NCBI GenBank assembly: GCA_964519975.1
Contig: CAZFML010000001.1
Location: 1-28,812, forward strand
From: an uncultured Planctomycetia bacterium
GTDB taxonomy: Bacteria; Omnitrophota; Gorgyraeia; Duberdicusellales; 4484-171
Reading direction: 5' to 3'
Length of the DNA: 28,812 bases
Shown: positions 2 through 28,812 of the stretch, piece after piece
Position numbering within the stretch: the stretch's first letter is position 1
Layout: each line of letters opens with the position of its first letter
Translations under genes and position numbers: made by a program
Notes under the pieces: model-generated
Databases searched by the model: none
The model's input: only the letters and a program-made list of their open reading frames with translations
What the model was told of the DNA's origin: nothing

Positions 2-466
2 AAAGACGTAAGGTCAATGGGCAGAACAGCGGCTGGGGTAAAAGGAATTAGATTAAAGAAGGGCAAAGAAGGCAAACCTTCTTCTTCCCCCTTCGTTAAA
101 ACTCGGGAAGCAGATGAGATTATTGGAATGGAGATTATCAAAACACAAAGCACAAAACGCAAAGCAAAGAATTATCTATTGATTGTCATGGAGAATGGAT
201 ATGGAAAAAGGACTAACATTCAAGAGTATCGAGCACAAGGAAGAGGTGGTTCAGGCATTAAAACAGCTAATATTACTGCTAAAACAGGCGAGATTGTAAG
301 TGCCAAGCTTTTGACCGAAGAAAAAGATTTAATTGTTATTTCTCAGAAGGCCCAAGTAATCAGGACAAAGATTTCTCAGATTTCAAAACTTTCTAGGGCT
401 ACTCAAGGTGTGAGGATAATGAGATTGCAGGAGAAAGATAAAGTAGCTTCTGTGATTTGCATATGA
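2..466 (+). CDS. gyrA: DNA gyrase subunit A, C-terminal beta-pinwheel part (5'-truncated by window edge)
   Basis: Frame is open from nt 2 (KDVRSMGRTAAGVKGIRL). Contains GyrA CTD blade repeats LLIVMENGYGKRT, EYRAQGRGGSGIK and SRATQGVRIMRL. TGA at 464-466. Confidence 0.9.
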   Translation, partial: KDVRSMGRTAAGVKGIRLKKGKEGKPSSSPFVKTREADEIIGMEIIKTQSTKRKAKNYLLIVMENGYGKRTNIQEYRAQGRGGSGIKTANITAKTGEIVSAKLLTEEKDLIVISQKAQVIRTKISQISKLSRATQGVRIMRLQEKDKVASVICI

Positions 467-1047
467 GAACATTCTTAAATCCGAATAAAGTTTTAAAACA
501 GCTTAAACTAAAACCAAACATAACAGCGGTTGATTTTGGTTCTGGCTCTGGAAAGATTGACTTTATGCTAGCGGTTAATGGAGCCTCTGTCGACGGCTGG
601 GAAGAAAACATGAATGTATTTTTAAGAAGCATTGCAATGCAGATGAAGATACTTAGAAGGGTTGCTAGCAGGTTTAATAACAGCTTATCTGATGAGGAAA
701 GTAGGTTATTGATTCAAGCAGTTACTAGGGTTAATTTTACTCAAGGCGACGTCTTTACTGCTCAGCCAGCGATTAATTTTAGAGATTATGATGTGGTTTA
801 TCTTTATTATCCTGAGCCCAAAGATGCCATAACGGTACATTTTCTTTCTGAGTTAGGGCGGGTTTTGTCAGATCCTCAGACTGGTATGCGCCCAGATGCC
901 ACATTGGTTATTTTGCGTCAACGAAAAGGCGAGGATCTTGTAATTGAAGGTTTTGATTTAGCTGATTCACGGGAAGTTACACTTACCGAATGCGAAAATG
1001 TTACTACTAGTGTTTTGTACAAATACCGCCTAGCTAAAGGAATTTCT
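463..1047 (+). other. Module 1: class I SAM-dependent methyltransferase-like domain
   Basis: Motif I AVDFGSGSG (DFGSGSG at 532-552), then VDGWE, FTQGDVF and YDVVYLY in the order expected for a Rossmann-type methyltransferase. Confidence 0.7.
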
Positions 1048-4000
1048 TTAGATAATGGAGGCAAGGAGAAATCTTCAGAAGGCTCAAGAGAAATCTCTCC
1101 CCAATTACTGGATAAAATCACAAAGATACAAAGTTGCATGAGAGAAATAGGTTTTACTAGACCGCTATTTTTAGCTGGTTCAACCTTGATTGATCGGCCG
1201 GGAGCTGATTTAGATCTTTTTGTTAGTGAGCGGTTTCGTTCAATATCTATGCGTATCCCTGGTGGTCCGCTTTCGAAATTAGAGGATTTAGTCAAACAAA
1301 GGCTTAAGCTAGATCGGTCAATAATTATACATTATCTACAGCGGGAGATGCTTCTTGAAGATGAATTCGATATAACTTTTAGATATGGTTTTCTTATAAT
1401 TATCTATCCTGATTCTTATGCTGTAGTTAATAAGCCTATAGCTCGGGAGATTTTTATGCATAATTTTATTAATCCAGAAGGCGGCGATAGTAGCAGCTGG
1501 CAAGCTTTAAGCCCCAACTTTGGTAGCGATTCTACCAATAATGATCAGGATGGTTCCGCTAACCTTGATAACGGGGGCAGCAGCAAAAAGAAAGTAAAAC
1601 GCCTAACTGCCCTCGAGAGATTTAAGGCAGACATTGATCAACTTCTTGCTGATCCACAAACCCCTCAGGTAAGCATAACGGCTATCATGGATTTTTACGG
1701 AGAAGGGTTAGAGCGAAATCAAGTATTGGCAGTTCTTTCCGAGAAAGGCTTTCAGCGTCAAAGCGACGAGATCTATTTACTTCCCAAATCCAGAGAAAGT
1801 CTGGATAACGGTGGCCAAAGAAGATTAACCGATCAAGACCAGAGAGATGAGTTGGTTCGCGATGATGGAGTTGGCGGGAGAGTTGTAAGGAGCAAGACTC
1901 CTTCGGGTGCTTATATATATCGTACCGAATCTAGTCCCGGTGACTACCGCAACTATACTGTTAATCCTAGTGCTGAAGAGGTAGTTTCTGCTTATCAAGC
2001 TTACAACTATGAACCAACAGCAATGAATGTAGATCCTAGAGTTCTTAGGAGCATAAGAGAGTGGATTGAAGGCAGATATAAGAGTCTAAAACAAGATCGG
2101 TATTTAAAGCTAGGAGGTTTGCGTCAGAGGGGAGGCGAGGTAAGTCCGTCGCAGTTATATCCCAAGCCAGAGTTTCTTGTTTTTGAATACCGTATGGTTT
2201 TAGGCGGAAAGTTACCTAATAGCGGCAACGCTCTTTCAGCAGATTTGGTATTTTTAGCTGAAGCCGGACGCATAAAAGCTAAAATACTTTCTCCTAAAAC
2301 AGGCGCTGAATACTTTAATCCTCAATGGTTCTCTGACAAGGAAGATTTTCCTCAAGTTAGGGCTGAGCTTGAGCGAGGAAGACCAATCAAAGATTTTATA
2401 GATTCTCGGGAGTCTCTAGATAATGGGGGAAGGAGGGAAGTTTCGAATGAGTTTTCCGGTGGTGGACGACGGACCAATGAAGATCGTGTAGATTTTGTAT
2501 ATTTTCTGGCCGAGTCGTATTTAAATTCTTTGTTTAGTTTTCGTAAATTAAGAGCAAACAATATAGATGTTGCTGGTATGTATATCCCAGCGATTTCAGA
2601 AACGGCAGTTAGAAAGAAAAGAAAAAAATGGCATGTGTCTGATAGTGAGATTGCCGAGCGGGCTTTCCAAATTATGTCTGGGCCGGGGTTTAGACATCAA
2701 ACTGGCTATGCTCTCGAGGGTCTCCTTGATTCCATCTTAGCTTCCGGAGGAAGAAATCAGGCTGCTGATCAGCTGGGAGTTGATCGAACCAGTCTAACTC
2801 GTTGGGTTAATAGCTTACCTAATGATCTATTGGCTAGTTTAGATCAGAGATTAGTTGATAAGAAAAGACAGGTTCTTGACTTATTTGATGAGAACAACAC
2901 TAAGGATTCAGCCAGTTCTTTAGACAATGGCGGTCAAAGGAGCCTTATTGTTTCGGAAGGAGATATTGTTTTTGCTAGATTAAAAGATAACCAAACTTTA
3001 TCCATACCCTATCTCTATTCTGACTCAGCCTTTATAGCCAGAGCCCATACTAAACAAGGAGAGCTTTTGCATATACTTGCTCACATCGGACATAGACCTG
3101 AGCTTCAGGATGGTAGTTATACCGTTGCATCTTCAATAGACCACCAGATGGGATTTTTAATCCGCAATCTTGAACATCTAGGCATGTCTTGGATAGAGTT
3201 TTATCTTAATCTGTTTACTGGCGGAGGAGCCTTAATTTATCAAAGAGCCGAGGAACTGAAAAGGACTTTGGGCCCAAAAGTTAAAGTAGTAGTAAATGAG
3301 AGCAAAAATCGATACCGAACAGCCAGAGATGACCCTGAGGCTTTAGAAGTTAACAATCAGGGCTTTAGAGTCCTTCATAATATTACCCACCGAGGAGTTG
3401 CTCCTACAGTTTATTCTTGGATAGCTTTTTCTGATAGAAAAGATGCAGTTTCTAGATCAGAGCAGAGAAGGAGAGCCTTTGCCCGAAGGCATCTTCGAGC
3501 TCTAGGTCATAAGCCAGATAGCCAGTCTAAATCAGCTTCGCTTGATAACGGCGGTAGTGAATCTGTTTTGGTAACCCGCAATTTTGCAACTATTCAGGGA
3601 GATCAGTTTATTTTGCAACAACCTATGGTTAGGAAAGATGTCGGTAAGGCAAGACTGATCTATCAGGGAAAAAGAAATTACCTCAGAGAAGTTTTTGATA
3701 GGGCAAGAGATACAATTAAGGCTGATGCTGTTCTGTTGTTAGAGCTAGATAGATTAAGAGAAGTAGAGATTCGTGAAGGAAATTTTACTCAGATTTTAGC
3801 TTTGTACATTGATAATGCACTCTATCTTCATGGAGAACTGCTATATCTAGCTGAAAGATACGATAGATTATTAGCTATTTTATTTTTTATTGCACGAACT
3901 CAAAGTTATCCCCAAGCTTCTATCTTTGGTAGTAAAATTTTTGCTCTTGGGCATAGCAGAGAAGTTGTAGCCAGGCAGTTAGAATCTGGAGTGCAGCAAC

Positions 4001-7000
4001 AAGATACAACCCTTACTCATTTTCCTTTTTATACTGAATTTTCTGCAGTCTCTGGTAGCAAGTTTAAGGCCTTATATAGAAAACTCTATGGCCAAGAGGC
4101 TAATCCAGAGGTAGCACGCTTTGCTCAAACTCTTGATAGTCTTAGTCCAGTAGTTATCCCGCTTTACCATGCTATTACTGATGATCGAGGTAAGCCCTTT
4201 TATCCAGAAGGTTGTGGGATGTTCTCGGAAGCTGTGGGTAAATATTTAAGGGAAAGAGGCTTTAAGGCTTATCTTACTAGTAGCTATGATAGTGAGCACG
4301 AGTCTATCATGATAGAGGTAGGTAAGGGATGGTTTTTACTTGACTACACTCCTGATCAGTACCTTCAGAAATCAAAAAATTTTAAAATAAACCCAGTTAT
4401 TATTCCTTTAGATACTGTTGCACAGTGTTTAAACCTTTTCTTACCGTATTATCCTGCTTCACATATGCACGATCGAATTCCTGATGTTGATGAACCGATG
4501 ATGGCTAAAAGTCACCAACTTTATGAAACTATTGTTACCCGCTTAAAGAGTAGCTCTTTAGACAACGGTGGCAGAAAAGTATCTGAATCGGTGTCAGACT
4601 ATAAGATAATGACTAACCAGGGTGAACGTAGGCTTTTGGTTGAAGCTGCAACAGCACTGGTTCATAAACTTAGAGGACAATCCTCGCAACGGACTATTGT
4701 CGCTATCCCTGGTAGCGGTTATTGGGCCGCTAAACTTCTTGAAATAGTTTGGACTAGGCTTTATCCAGATGATCGCATAAAACTCATAACCATGGATGAA
4801 ATAGCAGCTGGTGGTGGGGAAATGGCTAGGACAGAAGCACTAAGGATTCAAGCCAGAGGAGAAGATTTAATTATTTTAGATGACGTTCTTAGCACTGGTC
4901 ATGAAAAAACGATGCGCATAACTCAGTTGGGCATTAATCCTCAAGATTTAAATGCTATTCTGGCGGTGTTGCTAGTTGCACCTGACTTAGCAAGAGGTAG
5001 CTTTGAGTATAGGGATTCTTTTGTCTGTTGTGAAATTCCTCTAGTTTACGGAGAGGCAGCAAATTTAGCTATACACGAAGAGGGTATATGGCGAAAATTA
5101 CCTAAGTGGCATTTTTTGAGAAAGTATTGGGATTCTATTATTAATTCCCCACAGCCTACAGCTGAAGAATACTTTCGGCACAACAACCAGCTTTTAAGCG
5201 AATTCCAAAGGATGGTTAAAGCGGATTCCCTCGACAACGGTGGCCGCTTTTTAAGCAGAAAAATTAATAATGATCATCTACGTAGCGGAACCAGAGTTCG
5301 GCAATATGACTCAAAGAAAGGCTCATCGAGAATCAGCATAGGAGAATCAGCTGATATTATTCCTGAGCAGTATTTGATGCATTGCAATGGTGTTGTTATT
5401 TATGACACGAAAGTTAAGAAGGCAGCTCTGATTCATGCTGGTATGGAAACAAGCTTTGAAGATGCAGAAGATATATTGAGGCAGGCTTTCGATTTGTTAG
5501 AAATAGATATTTCTGATGTAAATTATATAAGTGAAAACATTTTGACAGTTATTGTTAGGGCTAAGCTAGAAAACGCAGAAAAAATTGAGACTTTATTTGC
5601 CAAGGCTTCTGATAATCTTAAATTACCAAGACTGGAGTCAGATCTTAATGATCATTGGCGCAATAGCATGCTTCGGTTTGTGGTTAGCGAAGGTCTGTTT
5701 TTAGCCTTATTGATCGGCGCCGAGAACGAGAGGATTGTTCATTCGATTAACCTAGATGAATTAGCTCATAGAGGAAATTTTGTCGCTAACAGGCGTTCTC
5801 TTAACAACGGCGGTCAGGTCAAATCCGCTCAAGGTGACAGCAGCAGAGATGCTATTGAGTATGGTTTCGGAGTAGATGTTAGTCGTTCGGGAAGAGAGTT
5901 AAAGGTCTATCTTGGCGATCAGGCTTTACATATTGTTTTTGGGGATGATGTTTTGCGTAATAGAATAATCGGCTCCTTGCCATTTGGAGTAAAAGTTGCC
6001 GCCTTCAGGCCGACTTCATATCAATTAGGTTATCGGATCTGCAAGGCTCTGTTGGAATTATTTCCTGAAGATATGCGTCAGGTAATGAGGTTAAGTTCTA
6101 GTGGGGTAGGCATGGCCTTAGCTTTTCCTGAACAGTTTTTTGTTAGCTGCCGGGTTAAATTTTATCCAAACAGGATAGAGATATCTATAGCAGAGAAATC
6201 TTTGCTGGTTTTCTCTTACGATTATGGAAGCGAAGATCCGTTTGGAGGATTGATAATGGCTCCTTTCCTTTTCGCCGATGATGCCGAAGATATACTCGGT
6301 AAGCAGTGGTCTGAGTTTTGGCGGATTAAGCATGCTAAAGTTGTTACTCCTGCCCCTCTATCGGATGGACCCAATCACTTACCTATGGCAATTTTTCAGA
6401 ACAGCCTTGTGCGCGAACTGAATAGAAGAGGAGAGGCAGATGTCTTACGTTTCCTCTTAGAACGAGCTATCTCTGAACCGGGAAGTATCAGGACATTTAA
6501 AGGGTTTAACGCCCCTGCATTCAATGCTGGCTTAGTTCAGGAAGTTTTAGGAGAACTTACTCACGATATATATTTAGAATCTCCTCAAGAGGTGGAGGAA
6601 GACTTAGTTTTTCCTGTAAGCGCAGAGCAGACAGGATTCATGCTTTCTGCGTTCGCATCTCCTAATGTCTGGGTAGGAGCAGAACCGTTAGCGGCTTTAC
6701 CCTCACAGTCAAACCTTGACAACGGCGGCCGAAGAAGAACCTCGGCAGAGGGATTGGCTCTTCGGGATAAGAGCAAGTTTGTAGCTGGAGGTTTAATTAA
6801 TCTAACCATTGCCACAATAATACTCGGAGGTTTTTATCTGCTCAGCCATGGCTATCTCCCAGCCAGTAAAATCTGGGCTTTACACAGCATCAATATTAGT
6901 TTCTACTTATCGGCTATTCTAGCTCTAGCTTTGCCACTGTTGTGGTGGTTTATGTTAAGAGACGAAGTTCCGGCTTTGGAGAGTCGCGATTCTCTGCTAA

Positions 7001-10000
7001 AGGGTGAAGGAACTGGTAAATTAGTAGTTTTAAGTACAGTCGTTACTTCTTTGGTCATTGCCATATTTTGCGCTTTAGCCCATCCGCATCATATCCCGAT
7101 GTTTATCCTTACCTTTATCATGCTTTTATTTCCGCTTAATGTATTTTTTAACGGATTTTTTGCTATTGCCTTTGATGTTCCGGGTATTGTCCAGGGCAGA
7201 CCATTTAGAAATCGTGGTTACACCAACATTCCGGTTGAAGTAATTGAAGATACCAGGGGATTAACCGCTACGCTTTTAGTTCCGATATACGATGAAGATT
7301 TTACTAAGGTTGAACCTACCCTGGAAGCAGCCTTAAGAGAGGTGGCTGATTTTAATACTCATAATGGAGAAGCCAGAGTCTGGGTTTGTGATGATGGCTT
7401 GCAGAAATTTTCCGATAATGATGTTGAGGGATTTTATCAAGCTATTCAGGACAAATTAGCCGGAGGAGTTGTTTTAAGTAAAGATGAAGAAAATTTCCTT
7501 AGGCGGATGCAGTTTTATCAGAATCATCCCGAGATAGTAGTTGTTGCCCGACCTTATCCGGTACAGGGAGATGCTGATACCCAGAGAGCCGGTAGTTTTA
7601 AGAAGGCCAGCAATCTTAACTACTCAATCAGACTTTCGGAAATGATTGATACCCGGATTAAGCAAGGAGATAGTTTTGCTGACTCCCTAGCTGCAGTAAG
7701 ACTCGAACAGCCTAAATACGCCTTAGGATATATGCGCGGAGAAGGAGTTGTCGGAGATTACTTATTGTGTCTGGATAAAGACAGCTATCTTATCCCTCAA
7801 GGGGTATTAAGGCATACTTTAGGAGAGTTTCTTAATGATCAAAGGTTAGCCTTTACTCAGCATCGGATAATACCTTTAAACGAGACTGATTCTTTTTATT
7901 CGAGGATTAGTGGGTATTTCCTGCGGATGCTTTATGGTTATGCTTTACCGGTAAAATCTATTCTTGGCGGAATGGTTCCTTTGATGGGGCATAATTTCAT
8001 CTTAAGGAAATCTGCTTTAGTTGAGAGCGATTTGTGGCGGGAAGATAGAGCTACTGAGGATATTAACTTAAATCTTACTCTCCAGACACTGGGTTATCAT
8101 AGCAGGTTCGTAGCTTATCCTAATATGGATTTTGGCGAAGAAGTAACTACCAGCTTTTCCGATGATGCTGGCAAGTTCAGCCGCTATGCCTACGGTATGA
8201 TTGAGATTGTTTTTAATCCTTTGTTAAGCTGGTTAAGAAGAGGGCCCTTGACTCAAGGGATGATAAAGTTTATCTTTTCGACTTCAGCCAGAATAGAGCA
8301 TAAGCTAGATTTTCTTTTTTATGCTTTATCTTATCTTAATCTGGCTATGATTATACCGTTTAATCTTTTTGGAATTAGTTATCCTTTGCTTTGGGGGGTT
8401 ATTCTGGGTAATTTTGTCTTTTTAATTATCCTGTTTACGATTGCAATACCTACAATGATGACCTTTATGACTCATAAAGGTACTAATGCCATACATCATC
8501 AACATAGAAATCTCCTATCAGCAATTGCTTATAATGTTTCACTGGGTTATCTTATGGGGCTTTCCTTTATCGCTTACTCTCTGGGTATAGCCAAAAGCAT
8601 TGTTTTAGCTCTGTTTACCCGGCAGGCGGATTTTAAAGCTACTCGGGTCGATGAGCGTTCTGAGATGAGCACAAAAGAAGCTTGGCAGGAGTTAGCAGTA
8701 ACTAGCAGCGCAACCATAATTGTTGGACTCCTGGCAGCTTTAAGTTTCTGCACTTATATTATTAGAGGCGAACCTAGTTTTGTAATCTATTTTGCCCTTT
8801 ATCCAATAGCAGTTCAACTTTTAATACCTTATTTGTTTAACCCTTACCTATCGCGGTTGGTAGGTCTGGGGAAAAAAGAGAGTGCTTCTTTTGCTGAAAG
8901 ATTAGAGCAGCGAATGGAGCTAATTTCCCAGAGAGAGCAAACCACAAACCAGTTTCAGCCTCAAACTCAACCCGGTTTAAGACGCTTATTAGCCAGAGGT
9001 GTTTTATTTATCGAAGTCCTTGGCTTAGGGGTAATATTTCGTCTTTATACCGACCGGCTAAGTGCCCTTGAATATGCTTTAGCAACGATTGTTCTGCCGG
9101 TAATATTGTTTTTATTTTATCGGGCCTGGCTAGCAAGGACCGATAAAAGAGCCGGTTTTCGGGCTTATCAGCTCAGCGCTCTTTCTTTGTTAGGGACGAT
9201 GTTCGGGGTGGCTTTAGTCTGTGCTATGTTTCGAGGCCATGTTTTAACCTCGGTAGACAACATTAGTTATTTTTTCGAGTATGATCAATATTGGGGGTTG
9301 ATCGAGAACGTTTCAGGTATCTATATGTTCTTTTTAGCGACTATTTTAATTGCAGCTATTGGCTTTAGCCTGACCGTAAAATATTTTATCGGAGAGTTTA
9401 AAAGAGCTTCTCTTGGCAAAATCGTAAAAGTCTTTATAGCGGCAGTTATTTTACCTCTGGCTTTTATTATGTTAATGCTCGATTCAGGTTATGCCTATGG
9501 CGGCTGGGGGATAGTTTTTCTGGGAATTACTTTTAATTTAGCAATAATTATTGCTGGTATTAAATTACGCGATCGTATTCATCCCAGTTCTCGACTGAGT
9601 CCGGCCAAGGATAAATCAGAGGAGAAAAGTCCTGGCAGGGCCGGAGGCAGGGAGATTCAAAATTTAGGCCTTCCTATACCCGATGAAGCTTGGAGGGGAT
9701 TCAATGAAGTGGCTTGGGCTGAAAGTTGGCTTGAGTGGTCTCAGAGACAAGTTCGTTCTCCTCCAGCAAAGGATCAGAACCAAACTCCTTCCGATTGCCC
9801 GGAAAAAAAATCCTTCGATAACGGCGGCCGTAGACGGTCGAGGAGGAAAAAACCAACTCGCAGAAGTAACCAATCTTCAGGTTTAAGTCCCGTCCCTACG
9901 GTTGCTAGGGGCAGCCTAGTTAAGGGTTTAGTTACCTATATCAATATAGCCCATGATTCAGAAGAAGATTTCTTAAGATTCAAAGAATATCTTGATCAAG

Positions 10001-27540: not shown

Positions 27541-28023
27541 ATGCTTTGCGATATTTGCCATAAAAACATTGCTACGGTACATCTTACTGAGATTATCAAC
27601 AATCAGGTTTCCGAGATGCACATCTGTCAGGTTTGCGCCCAGGATAAAACTCAAGAACTTAATCAGCAGCCTAACATCTCTGATTTTCTTAGCGGTCTGG
27701 TAAGTGCCAGTAGAGTCAGAAAGGAGGAATACAGCTTAAAGTGTTCTTCCTGCGGTTTTAACTACAGCGACTTTAAGAAAAAAGGAAGGTTGGGCTGCGG
27801 ACGTTGCTATCAGTCTTTCCGGAGGCAGCTGTTACCACTGCTTAAAAAAATTCACGGCACAACCCGCCATACCGGAAAAATTCCCTTAGATAGCGAGAAA
27901 CCAGTATCTTCACGGGATAAACTGAGTGAGTTAAATGAGCAGCTTAAGCGGGCAATACAGCTTGAGGAGTATGAAGATGCAGCTAGAATCAGAGACCAGA
28001 TAAAGAGGCTGAAGAAGAAGTAG
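27541..28023 (+). CDS. mcsA: McsA, activator of protein arginine kinase
   Basis: Four CxxC pairs (CDIC, CQVC, CSSC, CGRC), GRLGC, C-terminal UVR domain EEYEDAARIRDQI. Confidence 0.93.
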   Translation: MLCDICHKNIATVHLTEIINNQVSEMHICQVCAQDKTQELNQQPNISDFLSGLVSASRVRKEEYSLKCSSCGFNYSDFKKKGRLGCGRCYQSFRRQLLPLLKKIHGTTRHTGKIPLDSEKPVSSRDKLSELNEQLKRAIQLEEYEDAARIRDQIKRLKKK

Positions 28024-28034
28024 AGACTCAAATT

Positions 28035-28812
28035 ATGTTCGATAATTTTGTTAATAGCAAGGAAAGTTGGTTAAGTAAAAAGGGTCCGGAGTCAGAGATT
28101 GTTTTCTCATCGCGTATTAGGCTGGCCCGAAACATTGCCGGAATTCCTTTTCCTTCCAAGGCAACAGCTAGTCAGCGCCAAAGCGTGTTTAAAACGATGA
28201 AGGAGGTCTATCCGCATATCAGCCGGTTTAAAGATAGTTTTTTTGTTAATATGGATGATTTGGGACCCCTAGATAGTCAGTTTTTGCTTGAGCGCCACCT
28301 GATTGCTCAAGAGCATCTTGCTTCGGGAGTAGGCCGGGGCCTTATCATATCTAGGGATGAAGAAATTTCGATTATGATTAACGAGGAAGATCATCTCCGG
28401 ATGCAGGTTATCACTGCTGGTTTTGATCTTAAGAAATGCTGGGATATCCTCGATAATATCGACAATGATATCAGCAAGAGAATAACCTTTGCTTTTTCAT
28501 CGGAAATCGGCTATTTAACTGCTTGTCCAACCAATGTCGGTACAGCTTTAAGGGCATCGTGCATGTTGCATCTGCCGGCTTTAATTCTTACTAAAAGAAT
28601 CAATAAGATATTAGAGCTTTTAGCCCGGATATCCTTTACTACCCGCGGTCTTTTCGGTGAAGGCACTCAAGCCTTGGGGGATTTTTTTCAAGTCTCCAAT
28701 CAGGTTAGCTTAGGCTTAAGTGAAGAAGAGTTGATCGATAATCTGATCAGCGTGGTTAATCAGGTTAAGAGTCATGAACTCGATGCCCGCAATATCCTGA
28801 TTAAGAAATATA
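28035..28812 (+). CDS. mcsB: McsB protein arginine kinase (3'-truncated by window edge; not in the ORF track)
   Basis: Manual translation: MFDNFVNSKESW...SSRIRLARN, INEEDHLRMQ, GYLTACPTNVGTALRAS; follows mcsA. Confidence 0.93.
   Translation, partial: MFDNFVNSKESWLSKKGPESEIVFSSRIRLARNIAGIPFPSKATASQRQSVFKTMKEVYPHISRFKDSFFVNMDDLGPLDSQFLLERHLIAQEHLASGVGRGLIISRDEEISIMINEEDHLRMQVITAGFDLKKCWDILDNIDNDISKRITFAFSSEIGYLTACPTNVGTALRASCMLHLPALILTKRINKILELLARISFTTRGLFGEGTQALGDFFQVSNQVSLGLSEEELIDNLISVVNQVKSHELDARNILIKKY

Follow-up and report, generated by a model that had tools for sequence, protein, structure and literature searches.

Does a very long open reading frame (ORF) in the genome of a marine Omnitrophota bacterium encode one giant protein, or a chain that is cut into many smaller ones? 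The question is raised by a 28,812-nucleotide stretch of DNA (hereafter the window; contig CAZFML010000001.1 of assembly GCA_964519975.1), in which an ORF of 5,131 amino acids (aa) on the forward strand, 463..15858, is open throughout and is divided into 16 cassettes by 15 in-frame copies of a junction peptide, [S/N][L/F][D/N]NGG. Our analysis points to a polyprotein which is cut at ΦDNG(G), where Φ is a hydrophobic residue, probably by an embedded protease of the archaemetzincin family (M54), and we give this reading a probability of roughly 0.55. Giant ORFs of Omnitrophota, reaching ~147,000 aa, have been described previously (West-Roberts et al. 2023, 10.1101/2023.11.21.568195; Nielsen & Lui 2026, 10.64898/2026.06.07.730766; Seymour et al. 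2023, PMC10066038). In this literature C39 or S8 domains have been suggested as the cutters, while whether and at which points the giants are cleaved is stated there to be unknown.

Thirteen of the 15 junctions are exact copies of [S/N]LDNGG, and the other two (copies 9 and 11) are single-residue variants (Table 1). The composition of the ORF predicts 0.014 copies (Poisson probability of the observed 15, ~1e-40), and 2,000 shuffles of the ORF gave at most 1 copy. A previous sequence-only reading of the window had listed the lengths of the modules between the junctions, from 195 aa for the first to 534 aa for the last, and had seen the motif in no other ORF; we recovered these lengths exactly when the motif was counted as LDNGG, and found [DN]NGG in no other frame of the window. 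The 15 junctions use four different Ser codons, five Leu codons, all four Gly codons for the first Gly and three for the second. As synonymous codons vary while the peptide is kept, selection acts on the peptide and not on the DNA. Two translational readings of the junction were considered and rejected. The DNA of junction 1, TTAGATAATGGAGG, which contains TAG and TAA in other frames and GGAGG, prompted the idea of a hidden stop and Shine-Dalgarno unit, which was ruled out because synonymous positions are free and GGAGG is missing from most copies; internal translation starts were rejected because the sequences after the junctions show no pattern of Met, Val or Leu starts. Separately assembled contigs from 4 public seawater/marine DNA runs matched the region with 0 differences, showed neither indels nor alternative joints and in several cases cross junctions; these contigs are short, at ~2-5x depth, and cover local joints only, and it may be that the runs are the samples from which the genome was obtained. 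Among the public runs listed, no RNA run contained the locus.

The genome from which the window originates (G000) has an assembly of 872 kb in 74 contigs and is 65% complete. Throughout this genome Φ-[D/N]-N-G-G was found only in the window ORF (n = 15) and on contig C19 (n = 11), 26 copies in total. Positions 1-14880 of C19 (- strand) are a single open frame of 14,880 bp and 4,960 aa, truncated at both ends, in which 11 junctions separate 12 cassettes; its modules include a superfamily 1 (SF1) helicase and phosphorylase-like, FkbO/RidA-like, methyltransferase and transglutaminase-core modules. With this frame, G000 has two polyprotein genes. Its two giants hold 2.18 copies of ΦDNG per 1,000 aa, compared to 0.031 in its other open frames of at least 100 aa.

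We also found giant frames with homologous cassettes, arranged in a different order, in G001 (45,891 aa), G033 (27,261 aa), G011 (16,369 aa) and G002 (10,118 aa), of which G001 and G002 belong to the same genus as G000. The junction in G001 is P-L-D-N-G-K/R, with 91 copies of LDNG and essentially no GG, and that in G011 is S-[L/F]-D-N-G-G-S-S-P, while contigs of G068 and G070 are entirely open frames punctuated by [S/P]-Φ-D-N-G-G-x. When a degenerate DNA pattern for [L/F]-D-N-G was scanned across the order (85 genomes) and the phylum (401 genomes), enrichment was seen only in G000, G001, G011, G070 and G068, which represent 3 genera of one family. The same junction thus punctuates the giant ORFs of four further genomes. 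An excess of the pattern in G322 (G322:C8:1-16200; ~40 LDNG-coding sites in one frame, 260-440 nt apart) was a false positive for the junction, as it comes from a tandem-repeat protein with LDNG within each repeat of ~90-130 aa. The 10,118-aa giant of G002 (G002:C5:5089-35445, - strand) contains no LDNG; a different linker, ..GASSPG..[D/N]SSEPGS.KKASS[S/P], occurs in it 8 times, for example directly after the homologue of cassette 3 of the window ORF. The motifs RSEΦR, GARLA, DxAM[TS] and KxSSAG were absent from the LDNG-type polyproteins or present at chance level (0-1 copies).

To describe the junction we pooled 281 copies with full flanking context from 120,083 aa, D-N-G being fixed by the search. 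The position before the hydrophobic residue was mostly Ser (n = 122) or Pro (n = 116), the hydrophobic position itself was Leu (n = 227), Phe (n = 33) or Ile (n = 10), and D-N-G was followed by Gly (n = 171), Lys (n = 40) or Arg (n = 37). A hydrophilic dip was seen around the pooled junctions only from ~-8 to +12. In a census of near misses, D>N was the sole recurring substitution, and the Asn and the first Gly were almost invariant. The consensus is [S/P/N]-Φ-[D>N]-N-G-[G/K/R], in a short disordered linker, and judged by these sequences the conserved core of the junction is Φ-D-N-G and not G-G. Since the second Gly is Lys or Arg in G001, from the same genus, cleavage after Gly-Gly, on which the sequence-only reading had laid its emphasis, is weakened; the five junction-bearing genomes were also devoid of C39 peptidase matches, as described below. 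Spacer peptides of 7-43 aa were observed between close junctions (G001 m041 and m073; residues 1937-1978 of P0002, in the C19 giant). Some of them are kept across genomes, including ..TSPWLAG.. and the 7-mer RVPLDNG (seen twice); such spacers might represent small peptides or by-products.

The shape of this consensus also bears on whether the chain could be separated during translation, with the ribosome skipping a bond at the junction as it does at viral 2A (StopGo) sequences. There is a superficial likeness to the 2A motif D-x-E-x-N-P-G-P, and the G002 linker SSEPGS holds E-P-G, but the junctions do not match the 2A/StopGo consensus D(V/I)ExNPG↓P: no Pro follows the Gly, there is no conservation upstream of position -1 in the region that would be read by the exit tunnel, and synonymous codons vary freely. 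We regard ribosome skipping as scarcely credible.

If the junctions are sites of maturation, the segments between them should behave as proteins in their own right. Orthologous cassettes in different genomes correspond from junction to junction, with lengths of 812 vs 829 aa at 54% identity, 483 vs 472 aa at 64%, 168 vs 151 aa at 63% and, for a sigma factor, 535 vs 562 aa at 46%, and the neighbours of these cassettes are unrelated between genomes. Free-standing homologues were sought in an exhaustive profile-free search of 1.84 billion representatives. The free-standing relatives of cassette 13 (~363-379 aa) are aligned from about residue 12-20 to their last residues, and in those of cassette 15 (~236-257 aa) the first residues coincide with the start of the cassette. 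In a 6,592-aa giant found elsewhere, a member of the cassette-13 family has A-R-S-E-M-R at the place of S-L-D-N-G-G; as the same cassette family is followed by this other junction, or by a stop codon when free-standing, the junction seems to belong to the host system rather than to the cassette. The median cassette length of 270 aa is typical of bacterial proteins.

The position of the junctions relative to folds was determined using AlphaFold2 for 4 junctions in all. For residues 3540-4010 of the window ORF (45 sequences) the predicted core spanned residues 3584-3948, with block-mean predicted local distance difference test (pLDDT) scores of 74-98, and junctions 12 and 13 were placed 9 and 10 residues outside it in flanks with pLDDT < 50. 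Both junctions of the M54 cassette of G011 were likewise predicted to lie in disordered flanks (pLDDT < 50) of a confident core. The expectation that domain boundaries would coincide with linkers thus held for both of the window junctions that were modelled. Export signals start directly after junctions. Cassette 14 of the window ORF has a Tat signal there (Table 1), 3 cassettes of G001 have classical Sec signal peptides at their start (...VQA↓AE, ...AFA↓S and ...ASA↓A), and where cassettes have a transmembrane (TM)-like segment it falls within the first 45 aa in 26 of 61.

The contents of these chains are mostly those of ordinary cells. The G001 giant contains phosphofructokinase (twice), GlpX fructose-bisphosphatase, guanylate kinase and thioredoxin, together with a pyridoxal phosphate-dependent decarboxylase, a radical S-adenosylmethionine (SAM) protein and a protein-isoaspartate methyltransferase (PCMT), and a sigma-70 cassette is internal in the G011 giant. 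Because free-standing RpoD genes of 515 aa exist, the sigma cassette is taken to be an accessory sigma factor. A mix that includes an internal sigma factor, phosphofructokinase and thioredoxin makes little sense as one uncut chain. Several complete proteins per ORF, and a recurrent consensus at their boundaries outside the folds, are two of the features that define a polyprotein with site-specific processing, and both were found here; the junctions bound independent, whole proteins.

It should be noted that a chain of whole proteins might still remain uncut, with the junction acting as an inter-module joint, a hinge or a short linear motif, at which a chaperone or a factor for secretion or assembly might dock, and the giant as a membrane-anchored multi-enzyme scaffold. 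A 2026 preprint (10.64898/2026.06.07.730766) treats the giants as multi-enzyme or membrane-anchored proteins and says nothing about processing. Tandem junctions at a spacing of only 7 aa (RVPLDNG) would also be in keeping with a binding motif that is repeated, and cleavage is itself something that we infer. A scaffold would, however, have Sec signals with AxA sites and a Tat signal directly after its junctions, a sigma factor, thioredoxin and phosphofructokinase among its internal cassettes, and cassettes which are elsewhere free-standing proteins. A passive hinge would have no need of a D-N-G that never varies, and the chemical instability of an exposed Asn-Gly also counts against an uncut chain, as does the bracketing of a protease cassette by the motif across the class (see below). 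We therefore consider it unlikely that the chain stays whole, while keeping this alternative in view.

Cassettes are also gained and lost at the junctions. The polyproteins G011:C17 and G070:C16 are 96-99% identical, yet the sigma-70 cassette m025 and the cassettes m019-m021 are present only in G011, and the breakpoints fall within the junction peptide. This pair is too close for measuring selection on junctions. In the window ORF, an identical 30-nt direct repeat (13263-13293 and 14223-14253) covers junctions 14 and 15 and brackets the M23-like cassette, which may reflect recent insertion of the cassette or offer a substrate for recombinational deletion. The junction could accordingly be viewed as serving mainly for recombination, by which cassettes are shuffled, and as doing nothing for the protein, on the strength of this repeat and of the exact gain or loss at junctions of the sigma cassette and three others between G011 and G070 (~98% identical). 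We give this view a very slim chance, as the DNA of the junctions, bar one pair, is unconserved (five codons for Leu, four for the first Gly) while the peptide is invariant; since selection acts on the protein, recombination at the junctions is better seen as a consequence.

If the chain is cut, the invariant Asn-Gly raises the question of whether any enzyme is required. A break at this bond without a protease, via an Asp-assisted succinimide or via deamidation to isoaspartate followed by breakage, would agree with the practical invariance of the Asn and Gly and the replacement of the Asp only by Asn, with the presence of a PCMT cassette in the G001 giant, and with the lack of C39, C13 and taspase-like enzymes in the genomes searched. 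Legumain C13 (PF01650) and C39 (PF03412) both gave 0 matches in the 5 junction-bearing genomes, 7 of 14 control genomes being matched by C39, and taspase-like Asparaginase_2 (PF01112) gave 0 matches in the 85 genomes of the order. The junctions also do not have Gly-Gly, GA or GS at P2-P1 of every site, as C39 double-glycine processing would have. Against a chemical break, Asn-Gly in flexible peptides deamidates far faster than it cleaves, and Asn-lyases hold their scissile Asn in a folded active site, whereas the junctions for which structures were predicted lie in disordered segments. The conserved Ser/Pro and hydrophobic residues ahead of D-N-G moreover resemble protease subsites. A purely chemical break is quite improbable in our view, and only a slim chance is given to the wider idea that a minimal Φ-D-N-G peptide breaks itself, chemically at Asn-Gly or on the ribosome, and so serves without a protease as a portable tag and bacterial counterpart of 2A. 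Separately from its place in this argument, the PCMT cassette was observed within the 45,891-aa ORF at G001:C2:53363-191038; this enzyme repairs damage that is typical of exposed Asn-Gly.

A site-specific endopeptidase that recognises and cuts the junction remains the most likely means of freeing the cassettes. Transglutaminase-like modules were discarded as candidates: a Transglut_core domain within a giant was found only on contig C19 of G000, the copies in other genomes are free-standing proteins of ~800 aa, and the module is not shared among the junction-bearing polyproteins. A match to Peptidase_M54 (archaemetzincin), in contrast, surfaced in the Pfam repertoire of the G001 giant, and an M54 cassette was then identified inside the giants of all 4 other junction-bearing genomes (G001, G011, G070 and G068). 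As it does not lie in the window, this cassette was invisible to the sequence-only reading. No M54 match above the Pfam cut-off was found in the junction-less same-genus relatives of these genomes, G002, G003 and G067, and G069 has only a sub-threshold match from a different family of ~507 aa. In the order as a whole, M54 was found in further giants too, and there are free-standing forms (~200 aa) that carry signal peptides.

The M54 cassettes of the relatives score above the cut-off of Pfam PF07998 and have both the signature and the predicted fold of archaemetzincins. In the alignment (HExxHxxGxxH-C-x4-C-x-M...CxxC) the three His and four Cys are invariant, the catalytic Glu is present in 11 of 12 sequences, and the Met is substituted in G011 and G070; some copies have a 10-residue insert ahead of the third His. 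The embedded copies form a subgroup of their own that keeps the His, Glu and His of the zinc site and all four Cys intact. The predicted structure of the G011 cassette matched AmzA in Foldseek (2x7m, TM-score 0.80, E 1.9e-12; 3zvs, TM-score 0.85).

We then ran a profile of the embedded subgroup over 401 genomes of the class, and found M54 cassettes in giants of genomes that belong to other families and are junction-negative: G301 (68,606 aa), G204 (19,582 aa), G288 (59,091 aa), G182 (5,455 aa), G033 and G010. In all 6 of these the N-terminal border of the cassette, 150-199 residues before HExxH, carries x[D/N]NGG (FLDNGG, AFDNGGSCDNGG, PLDNGG, SWDNGG, YRDNGG and YYNNGG), and in 3 of the 6 a copy lies at the C-terminal border, 52-64 residues after HExxH (SHDNGG, SLDNGG and SFDNGG). 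Within windows of ~1,190 aa around M54 there was no further x[D/N]NGG except for one RDNGG in G182, and the single DNG of the 27,261-aa frame of G033 is the one at the N-terminal border of its M54 cassette. The M54 cores are 27-55% identical and their flanks are otherwise unalignable; that xDNGG is retained at the flanks at this level of core identity argues for selection. Such bracketing is the pattern that would be expected of a self-excising protease with (Φ)DNGG specificity.

Taken together, these observations would be explained if the 16 protein-sized cassettes are translated as one chain and the six-residue junction that joins them is, most likely, recognised and cut by a site-specific endopeptidase, the leading candidate being the archaemetzincin-type (MEROPS/Pfam M54) zinc-peptidase cassette carried within the polyproteins. 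This cassette appears to excise itself at the xDNGG on its own borders, and the site would later have spread to every cassette boundary in three genera; for G000, the cassette would be carried in the unassembled part of the genome. Once freed, exported cassettes could enter the Sec or Tat pathway by way of the signals directly behind the junctions. We infer the cleavage, the scissile bond and the role of M54 as the cutter alike. A cut between Asn and Gly might leave stabilising Gly N-termini and would agree with the invariant N-G; cuts before Arg/Lys or before Leu might expose residues that act as N-degrons in bacteria using ClpS. The sequence-only reading had proposed a polyprotein with maturation sites, and this part of it is supported, indirectly but by several independent lines, by the whole-protein cassettes, by the junctions outside predicted folds, by the export signals and by the sigma factor and housekeeping enzymes among the internal cassettes; its emphasis on Gly-Gly is not supported.

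Several points weigh against this explanation. For every one of these proteins the evidence of cleavage is indirect. No M54 homologue was found in the assembled 65% of G000, and the giant of G002, from the same genus, uses the SSEPGS linker with no M54 found; this last observation fits lineage-specific pairs of site and protease, although it is no proof of them. M54 cassettes are also present in giants whose other junctions are not LDNG, and M54 might therefore only trim itself or be ordinary cargo, with xDNGG flanks that could have travelled with the cassette by descent. Finally, metzincins usually prefer a hydrophobic or acidic P1' residue, which leaves the invariant Asn-Gly unexplained.

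We compared this arrangement with described systems. The closest are the Omnitrophota multi-enzyme giants, from the same phylum and of the same architecture, in which many unrelated domains tile one ORF, as was found here. The class was defined by Nielsen & Lui 2026 (10.64898/2026.06.07.730766) without mention of cleavage, linkers or motifs, and our giants differ from those published in that their junction peptide can be defined and another protease (M54) is the candidate. We found no description of LDNGG as a junction in the literature, and none which paired Omnitrophota with a polyprotein. Viral polyproteins (picornavirus 3C, potyvirus NIa, flavivirus NS2B-NS3 together with the host signal peptidase, coronavirus PLpro/Mpro) similarly have one ORF, a short consensus at the boundaries and a protease embedded in the chain with its own flanking sites, and those of flaviviruses have internal signal peptides after boundaries. 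Here, by contrast, the gene is chromosomal and lies between gyrA and opp, the putative cutter is a metzincin, the cleavage is predicted, and there are up to ~100 cassettes, including housekeeping enzymes. MARTX and large clostridial toxins, which are cut after Leu between their effectors by an embedded C80 cysteine protease, share the multi-module bacterial chain, the disordered linkers and a hydrophobic residue in the site; the present cassettes are mostly cytoplasmic or housekeeping-like proteins rather than effectors, the invariant D-N-G is unlike the sites of the toxins' cysteine protease domain, and Pfam scans of the cassettes at E < 0.1 gave no C80 domain, RTX repeats or type I secretion system context.

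Gly-Gly processing, as carried out by C39 peptidases, deubiquitinases, adenain and PLpro, resembles the G-G that follows Asn in 4 of the 5 junction-bearing genomes; it differs in that the second Gly is Lys or Arg in G001 and the conserved core extends upstream (Φ-D-N). Known archaemetzincins (AmzA 2x7m, 3zvs and 4axq; AMZ-tk; human AMZ1/2) have the same signature and fold as the candidate cassette, but are free-standing proteins of ~180-200 aa, whereas here the cassette is within giants and bracketed by xDNGG. A Thermococcus archaemetzincin degrades casein and cleaves itself in a zinc-dependent manner in vitro (PMC4681839); otherwise the physiological role of the family is described as unknown (PMC3427221).

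With a defined junction and a candidate protease, the cleavage of Omnitrophota giants becomes directly testable. If the proposed explanation is true, a free-living or episymbiotic bacterium expresses dozens of ordinary proteins, such as glycolytic enzymes, thioredoxin, sigma factors and exported proteins, as virus-style polyproteins, and archaemetzincins, which are found in archaea, bacteria and vertebrates, would gain a first physiological role. The junctions would also provide a rule by which giant ORFs could be split, for annotation and for structure prediction, into units the size of single proteins. New here are the Φ-D-N-G core, the second polyprotein in the genome, the confinement of the junction to three genera, the full-length correspondence between cassettes and free-standing proteins, the structural test of boundaries, the export signals after junctions and the class-wide bracketing of M54 by xDNGG.

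Table 1. Junctions and characterised cassettes of the giant ORF, in window coordinates.
Feature	Position	Strand	Asp/Asn codon	Description
Junction 1	1045..1062	+	1051	SLDNGG
Junction 2	1561..1578	+	1567	NLDNGG
Junction 3	1798..1815	+	1804	SLDNGG
Junction 4	2413..2430	+	2419	SLDNGG
Junction 5	2917..2934	+	2923	SLDNGG
Junction 6	3538..3555	+	3544	SLDNGG
Junction 7	4555..4572	+	4561	SLDNGG
Junction 8	5227..5244	+	5233	SLDNGG
Junction 9	5797..5814	+	5803	SLNNGG, D>N variant
Junction 10	6712..6729	+	6718	NLDNGG
Junction 11	9811..9828	+	9817	SFDNGG
Junction 12	11170..11187	+	11176	SLDNGG; disordered flank, 9 aa ahead of the cassette 13 fold
Junction 13	12334..12351	+	12340	SLDNGG; 10 aa past the cassette 13 fold; Tat signal next
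Junction 14	13276..13293	+	13282	SLDNGG; 30-nt identical run in common with junction 15
Junction 15	14236..14253	+	14242	SLDNGG
Cassette 3	1579..1815	+		79 aa; small helical module
Cassette 5	2431..2934	+		168 aa; weak helix-turn-helix match
Cassette 7	3556..4572	+		339 aa; Cys-His-Asp pattern
Cassette 8	4573..5244	+		224 aa; phosphoribosyltransferase-like, under Pfam threshold
Cassette 11	6730..9828	+		1,033 aa; polytopic membrane GT2 glycosyltransferase
Cassette 13	11188..12351	+		388 aa; family of free-standing proteins
Cassette 14	12352..13293	+		314 aa; twin-arginine signal (DRRDFLKSSAGA) 12 aa past the junction
Cassette 15	13294..14253	+		320 aa; M23-like peptidase, 27.2 bits vs cut-off of 28.7
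Cassette 16	14254..15858	+		534 aa; sigma-70 family, regions 1.2, 2 and 4

A homologue search with the whole 5,131-aa ORF returned only the query itself. Pfam found GT2, M23 and sigma-70 in it, and it also has a methyltransferase-like module. Cassette 3 has homologues among the cassettes of the G001 giant, where it is the last module, and of the G011 and G002 giants; cassette 5 matches the G001 cassette m072 end to end at 63% identity; and cassettes homologous to cassette 8 were found in G011, G070 and G068. For cassette 7 the leads to transglutaminase-like or papain-like folds are weak, with Atlas leads scoring < 0.9, and there is no counterpart in the other junction-bearing polyproteins. The N-terminus of cassette 11 is basic and is followed by a TM helix. 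Cassette 13 has no Pfam match, and its confident AlphaFold2 fold (pLDDT ~95) had no significant match in the PDB (best E 0.02); the search with this cassette gave 102 library representatives at E < 1e-10, most of which belong to a free-standing family of ~375 aa. An alignment of cassettes 13-15 with their homologues was set aside, as it put M23-family sequences on the wrong cassette. Cassette 16 shares 46% identity with a cassette that is internal in G011. In the public DNA runs, depth at window positions 14851-15400 was ~2x that of the surroundings, with loose ends at 15170-15220, as the conserved sigma-70 region 2 draws in the sigma contigs of other organisms.

The start codon of the giant ORF, ATG at 463, shares bases (ATGA) with the stop codon that ends a C-terminal fragment of gyrA, and an oppABCDF-like operon lies downstream. 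This order, the giant followed by opp, is also found in G001, in which the giant immediately upstream of the operon is one that carries an M54 cassette. The window closes (27541-28811) with a pair of genes for McsA-like (UVR motif) and McsB-like (ATP:guanido phosphotransferase) proteins; the McsA/McsB protein arginine kinase system is best known from Firmicutes.

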